A stretch of DNA of 17,434 nucleotides from a virus (lineage: Duplodnaviria > Heunggongvirae > Uroviricota > Caudoviricetes): the IMG/VR virus record IMGVR_UViG_2671180606_000003, positions 1-17,434 of that record, one strand, 5' to 3'. Of the stretch, positions 1,184 through 8,355 are shown piece after piece (the stretch's first letter is position 1; every line of letters starts with the position of its first letter). The notes below the pieces were generated by a model, which ran no database searches, had not been told where the DNA came from, and worked only from the letters and a program-made list of their open reading frames with translations. Made by a program: the position numbers and the translations under genes.

Positions 1184-1666
1184 ATGGAAGAACTTCACTT
1201 TGTTTACATCAATGCAAATGGTCGTATCGGTGTTCACTCAATACAGAGCATCAGTTATAGCGAAAATCATATACAGGGCATTTGTAAGAACACCGATCGA
1301 ATAAAAACCTTCCGAAAAGACCGCATTCTTAAACAGTACGATTCACCAGAACAAGCCATTCAGGAATGCGCGTCATTCCTCCCCGAAAACTACTCACATC
1401 TCACTAAGCAGTCTGGTCCGAAAAAAAATACATTCGATGTGTGTTTCACCGGATTTAAGAAAGCAGATAAAGAAAGATTGGTTGATAAGGCGAATGAACA
1501 AGGATTAACGGTAAGAGCCTCTGTAACCCAAAGCCTTCAGATGCTCTGTTGCGGTTACAATGCAGGCCCATCGAAAGTATCGGCAGCCAGGATGAAAGGC
1601 ACGATCATCATAGATGAGCCTGGCTTTATACATTTTCTTGAAACGGGTGAGATCCCAGATGAATAA
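1184..1666 (+). CDS. Cargo protein with a C-terminal BRCT-like domain (160 aa), function unknown
   Basis: ATG with upstream 'agagg' RBS. The C-terminal approx. 75 aa (FDVCFTGFKKADKERLVDKANEQGLTVRASVTQS...AARMKGTIIIDEPGFIHFLETG) follow the BRCT pattern seen at the C-terminus of NAD-dependent DNA ligases. The N-terminal approx. 75 aa carry a 'TFRKDRI' motif weakly reminiscent of WYL-type regulators. Lies between the att/ssrA junction and ogr. Confidence 0.7.
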   Translation: MEELHFVYINANGRIGVHSIQSISYSENHIQGICKNTDRIKTFRKDRILKQYDSPEQAIQECASFLPENYSHLTKQSGPKKNTFDVCFTGFKKADKERLVDKANEQGLTVRASVTQSLQMLCCGYNAGPSKVSAARMKGTIIIDEPGFIHFLETGEIPDE

Positions 1667-1694: not shown

Positions 1695-1911
1695 AGAAAT
1701 TCATATGCCCCTGACCACCTGGCAATGGATGTGGAGGAGCAGTAGCAATCAGTGCGGGTGTCACAATAAACCGGACCACTGTTTCATGGGTAACAAAAGT
1801 GCTCCCGCAGTTAATATTTTGGCACTGGCAGTAACGCTCTTTGGTGCTTTCAGTTACTTGAAAACTGCTCCTTGTGTGTGCCGCATGACCACACTTTGGA
1901 CAATTCATCAT
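1693..1911 (-). CDS. ogr: Ogr/Delta-family zinc-finger late-gene transcription activator
   Basis: Translation contains 'MNCPKCGHAAHTRSS...TKERYCQCQNINCGSTF...HPLPGGQ', the C4 zinc-finger signature of P2 Ogr. Start placed at the internal Met pair giving approx. 72 aa; the six-frame ORF extends to 1956. Confidence 0.85.
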   Translation of the reverse strand: MMNCPKCGHAAHTRSSFQVTESTKERYCQCQNINCGSTFVTHETVVRFIVTPALIATAPPHPLPGGQGHMNF

Positions 1912-1979
1912 ATCCAGATCCCTACCTTTGCTATCAGAATCATTGCAATGATACACAAAATATCAATATTGAGAACACA

Positions 1980-3080
1980 TTATTCCATTTCAAGATCACT
2001 TATCCTCACTTCGAGTTCAATGCTGGTTGTAAAACCGTTATCCGGGCTGACGGTATGTGTCAGGGTGGTAATGGTCCATTCCGCATCATCTATCGGCTGT
2101 TTAAAGCCACTGACTTTCACTGGCATTTCCGTGTAGAGATCTGCCCGCCCTTCCGCCAGTTGTAGCAAGAATGCCGCAACACCGCGTTGCAGACGTTCCC
2201 ACTGCATTTTCGCCGCTCGTTCGGCGTTGCTCCGGTTGGCATAAGTGCGATTAAGTACCAGCACGTTTTCATCCGTACCCACCAGGTAATCGCCCTGCTT
2301 CGCTTCCGGCTCTTTCTTCTGCTTCTTAGTCCTGCGCTTACGCTTCACCGTGGTGCTTTCTTTCTTCGCGGGTTCGCGGGTATGCAACCAGCTGGCAATT
2401 ACGCCCGTATAGGCTCCGCGATCTGCCAGGGTAAAGCGGTGACTGTCGCCGTCCTTACGCGTGATAGTGATCACCGGCAGTGGTTTACCGCTGGCGCTTT
2501 TGCCCTGTCCCTGCCGGATGAATAACAGATTGCCATTTTTCACCGACGCAATAGCACCGTACTGGCGCGCCAGCCGCATCAGAAAACTGCCGTCACTCTC
2601 ATTAGTCTGGTCTATATGTTCCACGGGCTTATCCGACAGGTCATTACCCAGTGCCATCTTCAGCTTGTGACGCGCGGCTATTTCCTTGACCACTTCCCCG
2701 ACAGTGGTCTTGTGCCACGACTTTTCACGGCGGGTATTCAGCGTTTCACGAAAATCAGCACTTCGCGCCCGGATAGTCAGGCGGTCCGGTGCGCCAGTGT
2801 GTTCAATCTCGTCCACCGTGAATGCCCCTTTCGGGAAAAGCGGCTGCCCCTTCCAGCCCAGCGCCAGCGTAATGACCGCACCACGGCGCGGCAGCGCTAT
2901 TTTTCCATCGGCGTCGTCCAGCTCCAGATCAAGCTGGTCCGCTTCAAAGCCCCGGTTATCCGTCAGCGTCAGCCTCATCAGGCGGTTATCCAGCACAGTG
3001 GTGATATCCCTGCCCTCAATACTGATGCTGAATGCGGGAGTTTTGTTGCCTTTGTTAAGCAGTTCAGAGCTGAAATTCAC
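1980..3080 (-). CDS. D: P2-family tail protein D (gpD)
   Basis: 366-aa ORF immediately downstream of U with an ATGA start/stop overlap; size and position (last late gene before ogr) match P2/186 gpD. Confidence 0.88.
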   Translation of the reverse strand: MNFSSELLNKGNKTPAFSISIEGRDITTVLDNRLMRLTLTDNRGFEADQLDLELDDADGKIALPRRGAVITLALGWKGQPLFPKGAFTVDEIEHTGAPDRLTIRARSADFRETLNTRREKSWHKTTVGEVVKEIAARHKLKMALGNDLSDKPVEHIDQTNESDGSFLMRLARQYGAIASVKNGNLLFIRQGQGKSASGKPLPVITITRKDGDSHRFTLADRGAYTGVIASWLHTREPAKKESTTVKRKRRTKKQKKEPEAKQGDYLVGTDENVLVLNRTYANRSNAERAAKMQWERLQRGVAAFLLQLAEGRADLYTEMPVKVSGFKQPIDDAEWTITTLTHTVSPDNGFTTSIELEVRISDLEME

Positions 3081-3562
3081 GACAGCAGCCCTCCCACCGT
3101 TTTACTGATATCACTTAAGGCAGATGTTGCCGTGTCCTGCAGATTATTCAGTTGCGTACTGAGATCACCGAACATATCGGACAGGGATTCATCCACCCGT
3201 TTGAGCGACAGGGTGAACTCAATCCGCCGCGGCATACCGTCGCGGAAAAACTCCGTTTTAGTCAGATTCAGTCCCTCAATCACATACATGCCGTAAATCG
3301 TGCCGCTGCCTTCAATCAGGGGCCATGCTTTTCCCTGTTCTGCCATCTGCTCCAGAGCCAGCAACGACAGCCTGCCGCCCGTTATCTCCGGCATAAGAAC
3401 ACCAGAAAGCGTCAGCATGTCGTTGTCCGGTCCCAGAAACTGCGTGGACGGACGACGGTTTACCCGGCTGTTTGCCGCATGTCGCCAGCTGCGTTGATAC
3501 TGCAGTTCCTGATACGGAACGGTGCGCAGCATAAACACGTACAATCCCAGCACCATCATCAT
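3077..3562 (-). CDS. U: P2-family tail protein U (gpU)
   Basis: 161-aa ORF between the tape-measure remnant and D, the P2 order T-U-D-ogr; size matches gpU (approx. 159 aa). Confidence 0.85.
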   Translation of the reverse strand: MMMVLGLYVFMLRTVPYQELQYQRSWRHAANSRVNRRPSTQFLGPDNDMLTLSGVLMPEITGGRLSLLALEQMAEQGKAWPLIEGSGTIYGMYVIEGLNLTKTEFFRDGMPRRIEFTLSLKRVDESLSDMFGDLSTQLNNLQDTATSALSDISKTVGGLLS

Positions 3563-4479
3563 GCGTCGTATCCCCCCTGATCGCTGTAGTTACTCCTGGC
3601 TTTTGCCTTCAGCCTGCGTTCACGTTCATCAAGCTGGCGTGCCACCTCCCGCGCAATATCCTGCGCACTTTGTCCTGGCTGCATCTGAATGATGATCTGC
3701 GTCGGTGCCTCAATCCTGTAAACGGGCGGCACAGTGGCTGCACGACTCACCATCGCTTCGCCGCCTTTCGCGGGAAGTGCCAAAGGATGCAACGGTGGAA
3801 GCTCTGCAGGCGCGGCAGCAACGCCCATCATTCCGGCAACAACGGCAGCCAGTGCAGCTGTATTTCTCCGGCTGGTCACATTTGCCGGGCCGTTAACAAT
3901 TTCCGGCCCGTTTTCACCGACGATGCCAAACTGCCCGCGCGGGATATAGCCGCCGCTGTCATACATCCCCGCAAAGCCATATCCCCATGACGGAAAACCA
4001 CCCGATGGCATCATCACTTTACCGTTTGTATTCACCGTCGCAGGTTGCTGACGCGTCACACTTTCCGGTAGTTTCGCCTTTGCGGCCTCTTTACTGACAA
4101 CGCCGAGTTTCTCCAGCAACCAGGAAACGCCGGATTTCAGGGAGTCCAGCGGATGCATGACCATATTCAGCCCTTCCGCCAGTGCCTCCCCGAATCGCCG
4201 CCCCATTGCCGCTGCACTCTGCAGTTCGGCAGAGGTTGACTTAACGGGCGTCAGCAGATCAGTAAACCAGCCCCACAGCGCCTGTACTTTGTCGCCAATC
4301 CACTGGAACACGGGCTTAAGCGGTTCGAATGCTGCACTGACGGGACCTGCCGCCGCTTTGAATCCTTCCACCACGCCACCAAGAAATGCGGTGATGGGTT
4401 GCCAGTATTTCCAGACAACCAGCGCCACGCCCGCCAGTGCAGTAACCACAAGACCTATCGGACTGAGCAGAGCACCTAC
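3559..4479 (-). pseudogene. T: Tail tape-measure protein (gpT), C-terminal fragment only
   Basis: Open frame of approx. 300 codons directly upstream of U, Gly/Ala-rich tape-measure-like C-terminus. P2 gpT is approx. 815 aa, but here the frame is closed by an in-frame stop at 4480-4482 and abuts an opposite-strand gene, so the N-terminal two-thirds are deleted. Confidence 0.7.
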
Positions 4480-4501
4480 CTACTGGTTTGTGCAATACGG
4501 C

Positions 4502-5092
4502 ATGACTACACAGCCGTATCAGTTCACGAAAGGCAGCATTTTTCACCTGATGGAACCGGATATCAACCAGGAGATCTACGGCCTGCCCGGTTATCTTTCT
4601 GCCATTCCGTCAGCCCTGCTCAACGAGTCCGCCACGCTGTTCCGCCGCAAGTATTACATTAACGGCAGCCACGCAGGCTTCATCATGTACATGACCGACG
4701 CCGCGCAGAATCAGGAGGATGTGAACAACCTCCGCAACGCGATGAAAAGCGCCAAAGGTCCAGGCAACTTCCGCAACCTGTTTATGTACTCACCTAACGG
4801 CAAAAAAGACGGGCTTCAGATCATCCCATTGTCAGAAGTCGCGGCGAAGGATGAATTTCTTAACATCAAGAACGTGAGTCGGGATGACATGATGGCAGCG
4901 CACCGCGTGCCGCCGCAAATGATGGGGATTATGCCGAATAATGTTGGGGGGTTTGGGGATGTGGAAAAGGCAAGCCGTGTATTCGTCCGAAATGAGCTAA
5001 TGCCACTACAAAAGCGATTACAGGAGATGAATGATTGGCTTGGCAAGGAGGCGATACAGTTTAATACCTACTCACTAGATATAGTCCCATAA
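4502..5092 (+). pseudogene. Q: Probable portal protein (gpQ-like) C-terminal fragment
   Basis: First in-frame ATG after the deletion junction; the upstream part of the six-frame ORF (4157-4501) is antisense to the tape-measure remnant. Strand and position (C-terminus pointing toward the cos-side region) fit P2 gene Q; the translation has a phage-portal-like flavour, unverified. Confidence 0.45.
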
Positions 5093-5095
5093 TAA

Positions 5096-5125
5096 GAAAA
5101 GCCACCGTTTGGTGGCTTTTCTTCA
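5096..5125. terminator. Bidirectional rho-independent terminator
   Basis: 'aaaagccacc'-gttt-'ggtggctttt': perfect 10-bp stem with A-run and T-run flanks, between the stop at 5092 (+) and the stop at 5127 (-). Confidence 0.65.
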
Positions 5126-5126
5126 T

Positions 5127-5867
5127 TTACTCAATAGGTTCAAACTCATCCTGAGGAATCAGCGTCGATTGACAGGCTTGGCTTAGTACTCCTGATAATT
5201 TACATAATAACCGATAGTTATGAGGAGCATCATCGCTAATCTTTTCGACCGTTAAAGTGATTGATTTTGGATCATCCAATAACATCTTCTTGATATCATT
5301 ACTTAAATACCTAGGGCAGTAACCAACGATTTCAGCTGGTTTATCTGCACGAACGACAACAGCATCCCCATCGTATTCATTTTGAAGATCCAAGCAAAGA
5401 CGCAAAATTTGCCCCGGTTTCAATTCAGATACACGAGCATTAGCTAAGCTATTTAAGTAACCAAGTCCATGTAAGAAGAAAAAATGCTCAAAGTTACCAT
5501 CAGAATCAACATCAATTTTTTTGAAAATCTGCAGCTGATCAGTGCTTCGTAAGCCTCCCGAGCGAGCAAGAATATCGATAGGATTTACCTTATCTTCTTC
5601 AAATCCAAGCCATTTAATGAAACTCGGATACTCTGGACGTCTCGGTGATAAAAGGCGATTTTTAAAAAGAGGAAACAATTCTTCCGAAACATAAGTTTCA
5701 CGAACATCACTCATGCCGCTAAACTTTGTAAATTTAGTAGATTTAAGAGCACCTTTGGTATACCTGAAAACATACCCCGATTTGCGCTCTTGCAAGTTAC
5801 CAACAACATGCCAGTCTCTGGTATCTGGTGCCTGCCATGCGACGTAAACGGAGTTTGTATTAGTCAT
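5127..5867 (-). CDS. HipA-N-terminal-like (HipS-like) module fused to a C-terminal HIRAN domain (246 aa)
   Basis: Start overlaps the kinase stop in an ATGA. The N-terminal approx. 110 aa (VYVAWQ...VVGNL...YVFRY...LFPLFKNRLLSP...IDILARSGGLRS) resemble the HipA N-terminal subdomain / HipS. The C-terminal approx. 110 aa (HGLGYLNS...LKPGQILRLCLDLQNEYDGDAVVVRADKPAEIVGYCPRYLSNDIKKMLLDD...ITLTVEKI) match the HIRAN pattern as in the HLTF N-terminus. Confidence 0.8.
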   Translation of the reverse strand: MTNTNSVYVAWQAPDTRDWHVVGNLQERKSGYVFRYTKGALKSTKFTKFSGMSDVRETYVSEELFPLFKNRLLSPRRPEYPSFIKWLGFEEDKVNPIDILARSGGLRSTDQLQIFKKIDVDSDGNFEHFFFLHGLGYLNSLANARVSELKPGQILRLCLDLQNEYDGDAVVVRADKPAEIVGYCPRYLSNDIKKMLLDDPKSITLTVEKISDDAPHNYRLLCKLSGVLSQACQSTLIPQDEFEPIE

Positions 5868-6778
5868 TCTAGTAACCTTCTGCGATTTTCCATTACCATT
5901 AACGTTGCAAATCTACGTGCACTGTCGGATATACACGATGAAGGCACTTGGTTAAACACATCTGTAATGGAATCTTCTGTTAAAACGCTCAACTTACCTA
6001 ACCAATGGTCGCGAGCGGCAACTCTCCCTTCAACTGCATGTTGAAATGCTTCAACGGTCAGCAAGGGCTTTTTATCAGTTTTTGCTTTGAATAGCTCAGA
6101 GCGAGCTTTTCTTACAAAACATGGGATTTGTCGATTTTTATCTTTAGTATTAAGCCGTTCGTTACGCTCATCATCTAACATCTCCCTTCCTAAACTAGCG
6201 GCATGATCGTATGTTGGACACAAAAACTGCTCACCAGTTTCATTGTTAAGCATGATCGCCCAATTTTCATGATGGCGATCTTGATTACTCACAAGTGCAT
6301 CGAGCATCAAATATCCACAAAATACATCTGCTGCATTTAGCCCGGTTAGATCATATACACTCGGAGGAGGCTTGATAGATTCCCTATCCAAACAACCCAA
6401 TACCCTTGTGACAGTGTGTTCTCTGACCCTTACCGGCTTTTCCCCGGCTTGTAAAGGCCCAGGATAATCGAATGTCGAACTGTGAAGCACTTCATTTCCC
6501 ATTACCATCCGGAAACCAGATGGAATGATATTCTGAGTCACCACACCGAATCGACCATTGTATCGCGCCAAATCATAGCTAGCATGTGGAATGTTAAGCA
6601 AATGACATAACTCAGCAGCACACTTTTCAGACCAATGCTCGCCAGTACCTGGCCTAGAGTACTTAAACAACTGCAAATTTACAGTGTCATCGGAGAAATA
6701 GAACCAAAACTTCTCTTTGGTTCCTAACTGTTCAAGATCGTTAGCTACGGGGCTAAGCTCTACCAATTGGTATGGCAT
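5864..6778 (-). CDS. HipA-family (HipT/CtkA-like) Ser/Thr kinase core domain (304 aa)
   Basis: P-loop-like 'GTKEKFW' (compare HipA 'GAQEKTAL') and catalytic-loop 'LVSNQDRHHENWAIM' (compare HipA 'IGATDGHAKNFSV'); lacks the HipA N-terminal subdomain. RBS-like 'aggga' 7 nt upstream of the ATG. AT-rich relative to the phage backbone. Confidence 0.85.
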   Translation of the reverse strand: MPYQLVELSPVANDLEQLGTKEKFWFYFSDDTVNLQLFKYSRPGTGEHWSEKCAAELCHLLNIPHASYDLARYNGRFGVVTQNIIPSGFRMVMGNEVLHSSTFDYPGPLQAGEKPVRVREHTVTRVLGCLDRESIKPPPSVYDLTGLNAADVFCGYLMLDALVSNQDRHHENWAIMLNNETGEQFLCPTYDHAASLGREMLDDERNERLNTKDKNRQIPCFVRKARSELFKAKTDKKPLLTVEAFQHAVEGRVAARDHWLGKLSVLTEDSITDVFNQVPSSCISDSARRFATLMVMENRRRLLE

Positions 6779-6937
6779 CTGACATCCCTGTTTAGCGGAT
6801 TATGAATAAGTTAGGTTCCATTTTATCCAAACATTGTCAAATACTCTAAGATTTATTAGATGATAGAGCGATACTGTATGCATGTCCAGCAATCAAATCA
6901 ATATATAACTCTTATATGACTTAGCGCGCGCTCGTAT

Positions 6938-6956
6938 CCCCGCCACGCCTGCCCGC
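6938..6956 (-). other. Possible degenerate cos-site remnant
   Basis: The minus strand reads 'GGCGTGGCGGGGATACGAG'; the first 12 nt equal the start of the 19-nt 186 cohesive end as I recall it (GGCGTGGCGGGGAAAGCAT), about 15/19 overall. Relies on a remembered cos sequence. Confidence 0.3.
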
Positions 6957-7386
6957 TTTGTGTAGTGGTTTTCATGCAGTTGCATAACATAAGCAAAAGC
7001 CCGTCAGAACTGGCAGGCTTCGACATAAACGATCCACTAGCGATCATTCATTTTCATGCAGCATAGGTATGCACCAGAGTTACTTTGAGGTGCAATGGAT
7101 GATACCTACAGATTTGCTACCCAAGGTCATGCTGAAAATCTATCGCATCTGTATGATGCCGCGGACATAGCGAAATCTCCCCATGCAGTGACAAACTACT
7201 TGAGTAAATACTGTTGTGTTACCACAAGAAGAGATTTCAAAAGGAAAACAACGCTATGTTATCTAGTACATATAGCTATAAATGTCTTAATTTTAGCCAA
7301 TACATTGAATTAAATGAAAAAATACTTTAGTTTGTATACTATTTTTTAGCGTTCAAGATTATGCAATTTTTTGGAGAGAACTATAA

Positions 7387-8355
7387 GTGGGATCTTTCAG
7401 TTTACTTGCATCACGACCAATACCAACTGTGCTAGAAACAAGACAGTTTAACTCAGTTAACGGCAGTGACGCCGAATCTTATGCAATGAGTCAATTCATT
7501 CTTGCTTGTAGAGGAGAGGGGCACTGGGGTTCCAGGGAAGACGACAATTCAAAAATAGATTTAATATTATCCTTCGAACATCCATGGGCATCAAAAGAAA
7601 GAATGCTTATATTGTCGCAAGTTAAATCAGGGGCAACTTATGGTCATTTATTAGAGAAAGGTTTTGTATTAAATTCGGCCGCAAAAAAAGCAGCCAAAAG
7701 GACAACTCACCATATATGTGTCGTTTGGGTTGACAGAACTAATCGTAAAGCATTTTGGGCCTATATACATCCAAACACTACCCTTAAAAACCAAACTTAT
7801 GGAGAATATCACTTAATCACTCCGGCTACACGGTTTGACCTGGCTCGCTGTATGTCCATGGTACGTGCAGGTGAAACTGGAGCAAAAGGAATCCATGTAA
7901 GAAGAAGAAACTCACTACTTAATAATCGGCGAGCGTTTGTTAAAAAACGTTATTCTGAACAGAAAGAAATCACATCTCCGGTGCTTGGGAAAATCGAGCT
8001 TACACGGCTGGGTTGGAGACATATGTTCAGAAAGAGTCGCAGAGAAGAAAACAAAGCAACGAGTTTGGACATTATTCCCTACTTGAGAAATTTACTAGTT
8101 CGGTTTCCTTCAACTCATGCTATTACTTCTTCTGATGTCCGTGATTACGGCTGTTTTACTTACCAAAGAAGAGAGCACTTATTGAAATTTAATAATCTAG
8201 AGGTTACTTATGCCAAAGGAGAGGGAAAAAATAAAGTATGTGCTTATATTCGTGTTATAGAAGAAATAAGGTATCCAAAAGATTGGACTAACGCGGTAAT
8301 GCTATCACAGCAGGTTGAAAGACGAGTGGTTTTGAAGTCAGCATATTATAAATAA
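7387..8355 (+). CDS. Hypothetical cargo protein (322 aa), possibly a PD-(D/E)xK-like nuclease fold
   Basis: GTG start 9 nt downstream of 'GGAGAG'. AT-rich. The N-terminal region carries 'KIDLILSFEH...SQVKSG', compatible with a D...E...(Q/E)xK restriction-endonuclease-like motif; the C-terminus is basic. Domain assignment is weak. Confidence 0.65.
   Translation: MGSFSLLASRPIPTVLETRQFNSVNGSDAESYAMSQFILACRGEGHWGSREDDNSKIDLILSFEHPWASKERMLILSQVKSGATYGHLLEKGFVLNSAAKKAAKRTTHHICVVWVDRTNRKAFWAYIHPNTTLKNQTYGEYHLITPATRFDLARCMSMVRAGETGAKGIHVRRRNSLLNNRRAFVKKRYSEQKEITSPVLGKIELTRLGWRHMFRKSRREENKATSLDIIPYLRNLLVRFPSTHAITSSDVRDYGCFTYQRREHLLKFNNLEVTYAKGEGKNKVCAYIRVIEEIRYPKDWTNAVMLSQQVERRVVLKSAYYK

Follow-up and report, generated by a model that had tools for sequence, protein, structure and literature searches.

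[quoted passage not shown] These authors hypothesized that DNA ends activate the hipIN kinase, leading to abortive infection. In the HipBST systems described in the literature, HipS neutralizes the kinase HipT at its Gly-rich loop, with Glu63 of HipS reaching into the active site and Trp65 serving as a wedge.

PADLOC includes system PDC-M03, described in the literature as a HipA protein with a HIRAN-domain protein. PDC systems are untested candidates, put forward on account of their embedding in defense systems already known (Payne et al.). A 'HIRAN-kinase' pair (HipA_C/LepB_N plus Couple_hipA/HIRAN) was reported from a Vibrio prophage hotspot, and the P2 hotspot table of the same study carries the very accessions found here, WP_001146828 and WP_000185757, a pair that was not among the systems cloned and tested (Rousset et al., 2022). 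When we searched the literature for experiments on hipIN, HipL, PDC-M03 or HIRAN-kinase, bioinformatic mentions were all that emerged. The initial annotation of this DNA stated that association of HIRAN with HipA homologues had been noted yet not characterized, and the literature open to searching agrees. The model proposed there, release of a kinase when a HIRAN domain senses free DNA ends, is essentially the hypothesis of Gerdes et al. (2021), and hence is not original. The family, its status as candidate defense system, the DNA-end-sensing model and this very allele are already published or in databases. We add the position of the operon between the portal stop codon and cos, the frequency of gene pairing across genomes, an invariant Glu in the kinase loop, and a universally conserved R...RPEY motif that appears to take the place of HipS Glu63/Trp65.

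Operon structure and prophage setting

The window (the whole stretch of 17,434 nucleotides analyzed) contains two overlapping genes on the minus strand, 6778..5864 for a kinase and 5867..5127 for a two-domain partner, here HipI and HipN (Table 1). The initial annotation had described a two-gene operon with an ATGA overlap and the kinase gene first; both ORFs are exactly as it described, and so is their order. At homologous loci, too, the two genes overlap or abut. PADLOC profile PDC-M03A matches the kinase over aa 2-304 (E 2.1e-122) and PDC-M03B the partner over aa 1-244 (E 3.4e-93). PHROG profiles match with E 2e-184 (kinase) and 2e-136 (partner), and homologue searches at E<=0.001 returned 955 and 535 proteins, respectively. 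The kinase is identical to RefSeq WP_001146828.1 and the partner to WP_000185757.1, and both recur without change elsewhere in E. coli, among other places in a P2-like prophage that is intact. Thus, these ORFs are real genes rather than chance reading frames. An NCBIfam search of the proteins gave nothing useful.

Table 1. Positions in the window of the hipIN-type operon, its motifs and its flanking elements.
Feature	Position	Strand	Basis or remark
G+C-rich hairpin, 13 bp	5094..5123	.	immediately after the stop codon of the partner gene
hipN-type gene	5127..5867	-	246-aa two-domain partner, HipS-like domain plus HIRAN domain
HIRAN domain, aa 127-228	5184..5489	-	
HipS-like / HipA N-subdomain-1-like domain, aa 1-118	5514..5867	-	
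SEELFPLFKNRLLSPRRPEY, aa 61-80	5628..5687	-	best-conserved stretch of the partner; matches the HipS segment bearing Glu63/Trp65
hipI-type gene	5864..6778	-	304-aa HipA/CtkA-superfamily Ser/Thr kinase core without HipA N-subdomain 1
ATGA stop/start overlap	5864..5867	-	kinase TGA plus partner ATG; indicates translational coupling
AGAAGG, Shine-Dalgarno-like element of the partner gene	5876..5881 (5881-5876)	-	sequence reading; putative function
Mg-binding motif PTYDHA, aa 188-193 (Asp191, equivalent of HipA Asp332)	6200..6217	-	hhalign; D191 in 49/49
Catalytic loop SNQDRHHENW, aa 164-173 (Asp167, His169, Asn172)	6260..6289 (6289-6260)	-	translation, hhalign
Lys39, predicted ATP-binding lysine	6662..6664	-	invariant (47/47); probable equivalent of HipA Lys181 by motif register
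Gly-rich (P-)loop EQLGTKEKFW, aa 16-25	6704..6733	-	translation plus homologue alignment
Sigma-70-like promoter candidate TGGACA-17-TATCAT	6860..6888	-	10/12 consensus matches, pattern match only
cos region	6923..6980	.	edge of the cargo slot, outside the system

The promoter candidate lies between cos and the kinase gene, about 80 nt ahead of the start of the latter. In a consensus scan, sigma-70-like sites were rarer in this region than in shuffled controls, and the assignment is a weak one. The hairpin that follows the partner gene escaped a consensus terminator scan and was confirmed by RNA folding (-21 kcal/mol, z -6.5, with 0/200 shuffles equally stable). It is likely a bidirectional terminator common to hipN and the convergent portal gene.

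The surroundings are those of a P2/186-like prophage and encode gpD, gpU, gpA, Dam, CI and an integrase, together with fragments of the tape-measure and portal proteins. Deletion of the block for head, tail and lysis makes the prophage defective. The operon has a G+C content of 41.3%, compared with 51-55% in the flanking phage genes, which bears out its earlier description as AT-rich prophage cargo. It is located between the portal-gene stop codon and cos, in a slot of about 1.8 kb as measured from the portal terminator. The cos sequence, GGCGTGGCGGGGA (6949-6937), lies in a region that scarcely differs from the 'putative cos site' annotated in phage Cartapus, and a cos block of about 150 bp is retained in 93 P2-like phage records. 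When the phage GenBank collection was searched at the DNA level, the flanking portal and cos segments were found, without a copy of the operon. The same slot in related phages holds TIR-domain, DUF4145 and Hypoth_Ymh genes. This slot belongs to the P2 hotspot between gpQ and gpA, near cos, which is rich in anti-phage systems (Rousset et al., 2022).

In 56 of 63 genome loci, the partner gene is immediately preceded by a kinase gene in the same orientation. The loci come from Gammaproteobacteria, Cyanobacteria, Planctomycetota, Acidobacteriota, Bacteroidota, Chloroflexota and Actinomycetota, and in V. cholerae the pair alone forms a two-gene insert. We looked for a third conserved gene and identified none common to the E. 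coli, Vibrio and Pseudomonas contexts. A neighboring 322-aa ORF was rejected as a member of the system, as other genes take its place in other prophages. No ORF with a helix-turn-helix (HTH) was found at the locus, where some 145 bp of non-coding DNA separate the kinase gene from cos upstream of it. Two upstream ORFs of 49 and 72 aa (6898-7047 and 7095-7313) were considered as a HipB-like or other small regulator and rejected; they overlap or flank the cos block and are partly outside the mobile unit, the homology of which ends near 7075.

At one locus (L055) a 314-aa ORF separates the kinase and HipN genes. It matches no family, does not resemble the PIN protein of locus L035, and is probably spurious. 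HipN homologues without an adjacent kinase have as neighbors a PIN-domain gene, genes for Schlafen-type (Schlafen/AlbA_2) ATPases or PLD-SNF2.

Motifs and predicted folds of the two proteins

The AF2 model of the kinase (pLDDT 84) has a bilobal HipA/CtkA/PI3K-like fold. Foldseek searches with this model returned CtkA (E 8e-10, TM 0.68), HipA (1e-6) and Legionella HipT (6e-5 to 2e-4), and the kinase is, in its predicted structure, closer to CtkA than to HipA. In sequence, HipA, HipT and HipS are matched only weakly. Sequence-only searches of PDB chains with both proteins and their profiles were almost empty (CtkA, E 2e-4; lp_0118, E 0.27), and predicted structures and hhalign were therefore used to establish that the proteins are homologous to HipA and HipS. 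Matches of gamma-crystallins to the RPEYPxFxxW stretch were rejected as chance.

Assignment of the first gene, in the initial annotation, to a HipA-superfamily kinase core lacking N-subdomain 1, and of the second to a HipS/HipA-N-terminal-like domain joined to a HIRAN domain, agrees with both profiles and structures. Among the family profiles, the PDC-M03A and PDC-M03B matches are strong and HIRAN exceeds its gathering score, but Pfam HipA_C (PF07804) scores 20.7 bits against the kinase (E 3.6e-4), under the gathering cut-off of 30.5. Because many close homologues of the kinase carry a precomputed PF07804 match, we attribute this low score to a limit of sensitivity rather than taking it as evidence against homology.

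All four core motifs of the kinase are present (G19-x-K-x-K23, K39, D167-R-H-H-E-N172 and D191). The catalytic loop highlighted by the initial annotation is encoded as it stated, and hhalign places D167, H169 and N172 opposite HipA D309, H311 and N314; the alignment with HipT covers its NNDMHLRN motif. Residues N165, D167, R168, H169, N172 and W173 are conserved in all 49 homologous kinases analyzed. The Gly-rich loop could be compared in the 47 of these, from many phyla, that align there: E16, G19 and W25 are found in 47/47, and K21, K23 and a T or S at position 20 in 46/47. The invariant Glu16 appears to occupy the place of HipA Ser150 and HipT Ser57, in a register set by eye against HipA SVAGAQEK and HipT SISGYQPK, as the automatic MAFFT alignment misplaced the N-lobe. 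HipA and HipT autophosphorylate at that Ser position.

The partner was modeled by AF2 with a pLDDT of 89 and a pTM of 0.84. Its N-terminal domain has the HipS fold and is homologous to HipA N-subdomain 1. Within SEELFPLFKNRLLSPRRPEY, residues S61, L64, F65, F68, R71 and R77 are found in 59/59 homologues and P78, E79 and Y80 in at least 52/59. This stretch, which aligns to the HipS segment 'SETLHPYFAS LAPEGW', may form the surface that contacts the kinase. In the sequence alignment (as distinct from a residue-level superposition), the HipS motif LAPEGWLR faces NRLLSPRRPEY in HipN, which lacks the Trp. HipS Glu63 and Trp65 have no clear equivalent in the partner, where a conserved R...RPEY motif is found instead. 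Inhibition in the manner of HipS should therefore not be taken for granted. Judging from this alignment, R77 and P78-E79-Y80 could be the functional equivalents of the inhibitory residues of HipS.

The C-terminal domain matches HIRAN (PF08797) and has the HIRAN beta-barrel fold. Partner residues Q162, N163, Y165, D166, Y183 and R186 align, by hhalign, with HLTF N90/N91, Y93, D94, H110 and K113; residue numbers in the HLTF sequence used match those in the literature. Of the pocket residues, N163 (58/59), D166 (54/59) and R186 (52/59) are well retained. The position equivalent to HLTF Tyr93 varies, with Y, F or H in only 35/59 homologues. Conservation of the pocket suggests that the HIRAN domain of HipN binds DNA 3' ends.

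Proposed function and alternatives

We favor, with a probability of roughly 0.55, the interpretation of this operon as a hipIN-type module in which a kinase effector and a DNA-end-binding partner together constitute, most likely, an abortive-infection-type anti-phage switch. HipI, a HipA/CtkA-superfamily Ser/Thr kinase co-translated with HipN, would be the growth-arresting effector. [quoted passage not shown] In an uninfected cell, HipN is expected to clamp the kinase near its Gly-rich loop. An infecting phage would then supply abundant 3' ends (injected ends, rolling-circle or recombination intermediates, products of nuclease damage), and engagement of the HIRAN domain by these ends may alter or remove the clamp. 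The freed kinase could phosphorylate an essential target, possibly an aminoacyl-tRNA synthetase or another translation factor, with the result that growth and phage production would stop. Given the proximity of the kinase to CtkA rather than to HipA, the synthetase target is only an analogy.

Control via direct interaction and allostery, rather than degradation of an antitoxin, is suggested by the existence of natural single-chain HipL fusions (Gerdes et al., 2021; PMC8262856). In a more specific and tentative form of the proposal, HipN would act as an allosteric switch under the control of DNA 3' ends, and Glu16 of HipI would replace the regulatory phosphoserine. Binding of a 3' end might be relayed through a rigid two-domain body to the R71/R77-P-E-Y loop, unlocking the Gly-rich loop of HipI. 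The HipS-like-plus-HIRAN unit may possibly be a portable sensor that also serves effectors other than kinases.

The kinase plus HipS-like architecture stems from bona fide toxin-antitoxin systems, and despite heavy deletion of the prophage the pair has stayed whole, a tendency of addictive modules. The pair could thus be an ordinary type II addiction or stress module without phage sensing, in which HipN neutralizes HipI stoichiometrically and the benefit is stabilization of the prophage or hotspot, or dormancy. As the locus has no HipB-like HTH gene, such a module would need another regulatory DNA-binding element, and the HIRAN domain might take this place, either for autoregulation or for coupling of kinase release to host DNA damage. 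However, known HIRAN domains recognize 3' ends rather than specific operators (Gerdes et al., 2021; PMC8262856), and single-chain HipL fusions cannot act via differential decay of an antitoxin. The presence of defense-type genes in the same slot and the nomination of the family by its embedding within defense systems point to immunity, and we consider a module without phage sensing unlikely.

[quoted passage not shown] If HipN were the missing N-subdomain and targeting subunit of a split HipA-like holoenzyme, its HIRAN domain would bring active HipI-HipN to 3' ends at replication forks, nicks or phage genome ends. Phosphorylation of DNA-associated phage or host proteins would then cause direct, non-abortive interference or a DNA-damage response. 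We regard this targeted-holoenzyme reading as unlikely: HipS is an antitoxin in both characterized split systems (E. coli and Legionella HipBST), and a DNA-bound substrate is purely hypothetical. Coupled, kinase-first gene order fits both production of a toxin followed by its neutralizer and co-assembly, and so does not discriminate between these readings. Loss of the entire structural gene block of the prophage would be compatible with a non-functional relic hitch-hiking in decaying DNA. Yet neither ORF is truncated, the same two sequences recur in an intact P2-like prophage and in further genomes, their catalytic and binding residues are invariant across phyla, and the operon comes with a promoter-like element, a Shine-Dalgarno-like element and a strong terminator hairpin. 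A relic is therefore highly improbable.

If the abortive-infection interpretation is right, hipIN would couple a persistence kinase of the HipA type to the direct detection of DNA ends, by a logic common to the eukaryotic fork-remodeling factors HLTF and Rad5, and abortive infection would have a trigger of a new kind. Should HipN prove to be the switch proposed, it would be the first toxin-antitoxin-type kinase regulator to sense nucleic-acid structure directly, in contrast to regulation by degradation of the regulator or by titration by a phage protein. The E. coli copy is a convenient test case, being compact, present in a tractable native host and identical in an intact P2-like prophage.

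Comparison with related systems

The window adds no new kind of system. Its architecture is that of hipIN: the 304-aa kinase lacks N-subdomain 1, falls within the 279-321 aa class and has its Gly-rich loop close to the N terminus, at aa 16-25 (Gerdes et al., 2021; PMC8262856). Only a Ser/Thr near the loop is noted in that paper, whereas we find an invariant Glu together with an in-loop Thr/Ser. There is no difference from PADLOC PDC-M03, given end-to-end matches and adjacent, overlapping genes. The accessions are those in the entries of Rousset et al. (2022), and the operon can be placed here specifically on the portal side of cos. HipL has the kinase, HipS-like and HIRAN domains in one polypeptide, arranged from N to C terminus as the two genes analyzed here encode them, but without the split at an ATGA overlap (Gerdes et al., 2021; PMC8262856).

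The locus differs from HipBST (E. coli O127:H6 and Legionella pneumophila) in several features. HipBST includes a HipB gene and has the order hipB-hipS-hipT, whereas the kinase gene comes first here and HipB is absent. The HipS-like domain is fused to HIRAN, and the PEGW motif of HipS (Glu63/Trp65) apparently gives way to NRLLSPRRPEY. The kinase is only distantly related in sequence to HipT and appears to have Glu at the place of HipT Ser57.

DS-6 (PDC-M66) also consists of two genes, for a HipA-family kinase and a partner other than HipB (a DUF3037/DUF1829 protein). It has been validated in E. coli, where phage defense needs the kinase catalytic residue. The DS-6 partner is unrelated to HipN and lacks HipS-like and HIRAN domains, so its sensing logic is presumably different. 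CtkA of H. pylori (JHP0940) is the best match in both structure and sequence among solved structures (hmmsearch E 2e-4), and has the DRHxxNW catalytic loop in common with HipI. It is a stand-alone, secreted proinflammatory kinase and is not known to have a HipS/HIRAN partner.

In HLTF and Rad5 the HIRAN domain is joined to an SNF2 ATPase and a RING domain, whereas in HipN it is joined to a putative kinase-binding module. The position of HLTF Phe142, the duplex wedge, is apparently taken by Pro215 in HipN, as aligned by eye. This agrees with the suggestion that HipN binds single-strand ends (Gerdes et al., 2021; PMC8262856).

Operon structure and prophage setting

The genes for the kinase (HipI) and its partner (HipN) lie where the initial annotation had placed them, with the ATGA overlap and the peptide SNQDRHHENW (encoded at 6289-6260) that it had read, and its observation is confirmed. 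The G+C content of the operon is 41%, versus 51-55% in the phage genes on both sides. None of 200 shuffled controls folded as stably as the hairpin that follows the partner gene (-21 kcal/mol, z = -6.5); the portal gene fragment, which is convergent, ends opposite it.

Features of the hipIN operon and its surroundings
Feature	Position	Strand	Basis or remark
Kinase ORF, 304 codons	6778..5864	-	ORF call
Partner ORF, 246 codons	5867..5127	-	ORF call; directly after kinase ORF
ATGA, shared by kinase TGA stop and partner ATG start	5864-5867	-	read from sequence
AGAAGG	8 nt upstream of partner ATG	-	read from sequence
Gly-rich loop, kinase aa 16-25	6704-6733		sequence and homologue alignment
HIRAN domain, C-terminal half of partner	partner aa 127-228		Pfam E 1.1e-13, above gathering score
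13-bp hairpin, 3' of partner stop codon	5123-5094		RNA folding
Putative sigma-70-like element TGGACA-17-TATCAT	6888-6860		pattern match only
C-terminal tape-measure-like fragment, downstream of gpU and gpD	3559-4449	-
C-terminal portal fragment, stop at 5092	about 4490-5092	+
cos site; core GGCGTGGCGGGGATACGAG at 6949-6931, within it GGCGTGGCGGGGA at 6949-6937	6923-6980	-	comparison with phage Cartapus
322-aa ORF beyond cos, same AT-rich island, divergent from operon	7387-8355	+
ORF	1184-1666	+	phrog_2561 'DNA ligase' match, E 5e-77; no Pfam match
ORF	1705-2136	+	no match at all

The window is a P2/186-like prophage, in which we identified gpD, gpU, gpA, Dam, CI and integrase genes as well as C-terminal fragments of the tape-measure and portal genes. 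These two fragments abut; thus, the entire head, tail (tail-fibre, baseplate) and lysis block has been lost, leaving a defective prophage. A similar deletion is annotated in E. coli SW071614 (gpD fragment joined to portal fragment), and the identical gene pair occurs in an intact P2-like prophage of strain MS1665.

The cos block is almost the same in sequence as the site annotated as cos in phage Cartapus, and a conserved stretch of about 150 bp containing it recurs in 93 P2-like phage records. Its identification places the operon between the portal-gene stop and cos. The cos site divides the gpQ-gpA hotspot, a known cos-proximal reservoir of anti-phage systems (Rousset et al., 2022), into two cargo slots, and the kinase operon occupies the portal-side one. 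Related phages have either nothing in this slot or other cargo, including TIR-domain, DUF4145, Hypoth_Ymh and SinR-like genes. The window proteins are identical to WP_001146828.1 (kinase) and WP_000185757.1 (partner) in RefSeq, and exactly this pair is listed among P2 hotspot loci in the supplementary tables of Rousset et al. (2022). The tables also give a 'HIRAN-kinase' pair for a hotspot in a Vibrio prophage, and the set of systems cloned by these authors did not include this one. At some E. coli P2 hotspot loci in their table, WP_000185757 is listed with DarT and Macro (DarG-like) genes, at others with DUF5051 and HipA_C. Thus, the kinase pair co-resides with other defence or toxin-antitoxin modules in the hotspot.

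Other possible cargo was also noted. The 322-aa ORF beyond cos is annotated as a 289-aa 'hypothetical' in a near-identical genome, and other prophages have different genes at its position. It had no match in Pfam (DUF4365 at E 0.12 and LPD3 at 0.04 only), PADLOC, NCBIfam, PHROGs or, by sequence, the PDB, and this uncharacterised hotspot gene could be a separate defence candidate. The two ORFs left of gpD, near the usual ogr and attachment site of P2-like prophages, may be more accessory cargo given their low G+C (43-44%).

Domains and conserved residues of HipI and HipN

Both proteins match PADLOC profiles end to end (PDC-M03A for the kinase, E 2e-122; PDC-M03B for the partner, E 3e-93) and PHROG families of unknown function (E 2e-184 and 2e-136). 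The locus is almost certainly hipIN, as defined by Gerdes, Baerentsen and Brodersen (mBio 2021) for the HipI kinase family and a downstream hipN gene encoding HipS-like and HIRAN domains. By Pfam profile, the HIRAN domain named in the initial annotation stood, whereas HipA_C in the kinase (E 3.6e-4, 20.7 bits vs 30.5) and Couple_hipA in partner residues 1-118 (E 0.018) were below threshold. An NCBIfam search of the kinase gave no match, nor did a sequence search of the PDB with the N-terminal half of the partner.

The domain-level interpretation is nevertheless supported by the kinase motifs and fold and by the partner model. The AlphaFold2 model of the kinase (pLDDT 84) best matches H. pylori CtkA in Foldseek (E 8e-10, TM 0.68), followed by HipA (1e-6), Legionella HipT (6e-5 to 2e-4) and then PI3K-type kinases; CtkA is also the sole significant PDB match of the sequence profile (E 2e-4). 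By hhalign, kinase QDRHHEN...YDH lies opposite HipA TDGHAKN...YDI, making D167, H169, N172 and D191 equivalent to HipA D309, H311, N314 and D332, and the corresponding HipT motifs align likewise. Among 49 homologous kinases, drawn from 63 genome loci in many phyla, N165, D167, R168, H169, N172, W173, D191, K39, E47 and E51 are invariant or nearly so, as is the loop E16-x-(L/M)-G19-(T/S)-K-x-K23-(F/Y)-W25. This Gly-rich loop starts at residue 16, versus 150 in HipA; thus, the HipA N-terminal subdomain is absent, as had been proposed.

Aligned by eye on G-x-x-x-K (HipA S150-V-A-G-A-Q-E-K, HipT S57-I-S59-G-Y-Q-P-K), kinase Glu16 appears to coincide with the regulatory serine that is autophosphorylated in HipA (Ser150) and HipT (Ser57). 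Glu is found there in all 47 kinases aligned at this position, across phyla, and Thr/Ser20 within the loop is conserved in 46 of the 47. Together these residues suggest a Gly-rich-loop regulation unlike that of characterised Hip kinases.

The HipS-like/HIRAN fusion is likewise supported, because the N-terminal half (residues 1-118) of the predicted partner structure (pLDDT 89, pTM 0.84 for the whole protein) superposes well on solved structures and a profile-to-sequence hhalign matches it to O127 HipS at E 1e-4, with the register as expected. In neutralising HipT, HipS inserts Glu63 into the HipT active site, and its Trp65 acts as a wedge beneath the outward Gly-rich loop. The HipS motif, FASLAPEGWLR, is matched in the partner by FKNRLLSPRRPEY, where conservation within the family is highest (R71 and R77 in 59/59; P78, E79 and Y80 in at least 52/59) and which contains no Trp. 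Thus HipN has R...RPEY where HipS carries Glu63 and Trp65 in PEGW; judged from sequence, a contact is probably made at the equivalent segment with different chemistry.

In the HIRAN half, hhalign to HLTF (numbered in agreement with the literature) pairs Q162, N163, Y165, D166, Y183 and R186 with N90, N91, Y93, D94, H110 and K113, which form the HLTF 3'-end pocket. Across 59 partner homologues N163 (58), D166 (54) and R186 (52) are conserved, and the position equivalent to Tyr93 is aromatic in 35 only. Bacterial HIRAN domains lack the Phe142 duplex wedge of HLTF (Gerdes et al., mBio 2021).

Distribution and gene pairing

Metagenome-scale searches (E<=0.001) returned 955 kinase and 535 partner homologues of very uniform length; many pairs are on contigs of equal length, as expected if they share a contig. 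The partner profile matched 1640 clusters (50% identity) among 1.84 billion representatives, and 317 clusters reached E<=1e-30. Nearly all matches are 240-265 aa long, and the two-domain architecture is therefore stable. A few representatives are longer: P0255 (408 aa; C-terminal extension with a weak pPIWI_RE_REase-like match, E 0.0017), P0263 (340 aa) and P0270 (419 aa; secretin plus HIRAN half), the last apparently a chimeric gene call or one arising from mis-assembly.

When one genome per species was scanned by pattern, 63 loci were recovered (Gammaproteobacteria, Cyanobacteria, Planctomycetota, Acidobacteriota, Bacteroidota, Chloroflexota, Actinomycetota and others). A kinase matching the HipI profile is encoded directly upstream on the same strand in 56, mostly abutting or overlapping the partner gene. 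In V. cholerae the two genes alone are inserted, cleanly, among housekeeping genes, and in an Ectopseudomonas genome the pair adjoins an integrase; no third gene is common to these contexts and that in E. coli. The hipIN module is a self-contained pair.

The remaining seven loci have no adjacent HipI-like kinase, although some contigs are short and some loci perhaps degraded. A PIN-domain protein gene overlaps the HipN homologue from upstream in one (L035:4016-4957), and a PLD-SNF2 helicase follows it in another (L046:1525-3546). Two Chamaesiphon loci have a 764-780-aa ORF immediately downstream, with Schlafen AlbA_2 and HATPase_c_4 domains in L045:1173-3464 and no Pfam match in L049:2368-4707. 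These neighbours hint at a possible reuse of the HipS-like-plus-HIRAN unit alongside other effectors.

Possible mode of action and known systems

The best explanation as a whole, with a probability of about 0.55, is a DNA-end-triggered anti-phage switch. HipI and HipN would be produced together from one coupled transcript; HIRAN would bind free 3' ends, abundant in phage infection, shifting the kinase/HipN state; and the active kinase would phosphorylate an essential factor, arresting the cell. A defence role of the module is fairly probable, and the specific DNA-end trigger is tentative. We infer HipI-HipN binding, the direction of regulation, DNA-end recognition, the target and the phage phenotype alike.

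Allosteric control is favoured over antitoxin proteolysis because single-chain HipL fusions exist, HipN is predicted to be one rigid two-domain body (pTM 0.84) and no separate regulator gene is present. That the operon is a plain addiction or stress toxin-antitoxin module seems rather unlikely. Instead of inhibiting the kinase, HipN might be an obligatory part of a split holoenzyme, targeting it to DNA ends, a doubtful reading to which the missing Trp65 wedge, the Glu16 substitution in HipI and the presence of the same subdomain in active HipA lend some weight. A dead relic is highly improbable.

The end-triggered switch, which the initial annotation had also modelled, is plausible and already in print: Gerdes et al. 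(mBio 2021), who also defined the fused HipL kinases, proposed that HIRAN recognises the DNA ends of invading phages or of replication intermediates, activating the kinase for abortive infection. Across 8 million full texts, queries by such family and domain names as exist uncovered no functional work on hipIN, HipL or PDC-M03. The locus is thus an already-known candidate defence module, described bioinformatically and experimentally uncharacterised; the operon is a good compact experimental target, not a discovery. Added here are its precise location, with the portal gene on one side and cos on the other, the frequency of the pairing in different phyla, an invariant Glu where the phosphoserine would be, the R...RPEY motif replacing HipS PEGW, and the minority of HipN homologues adjoining non-kinase genes.

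PDC-M03 is one of 145 untested PADLOC candidates nominated via 'guilt-by-embedding'. HipA/HIRAN pairs beside diDNase genes in Actinobacteria were described in a 2025 NAR paper, which called the link uninvestigated. Among relatives with experimental validation the closest is DS-6 (PDC-M66), in which a HipA-family kinase is paired with a DUF3037 protein and phage defence depends on the catalytic residue of the kinase.
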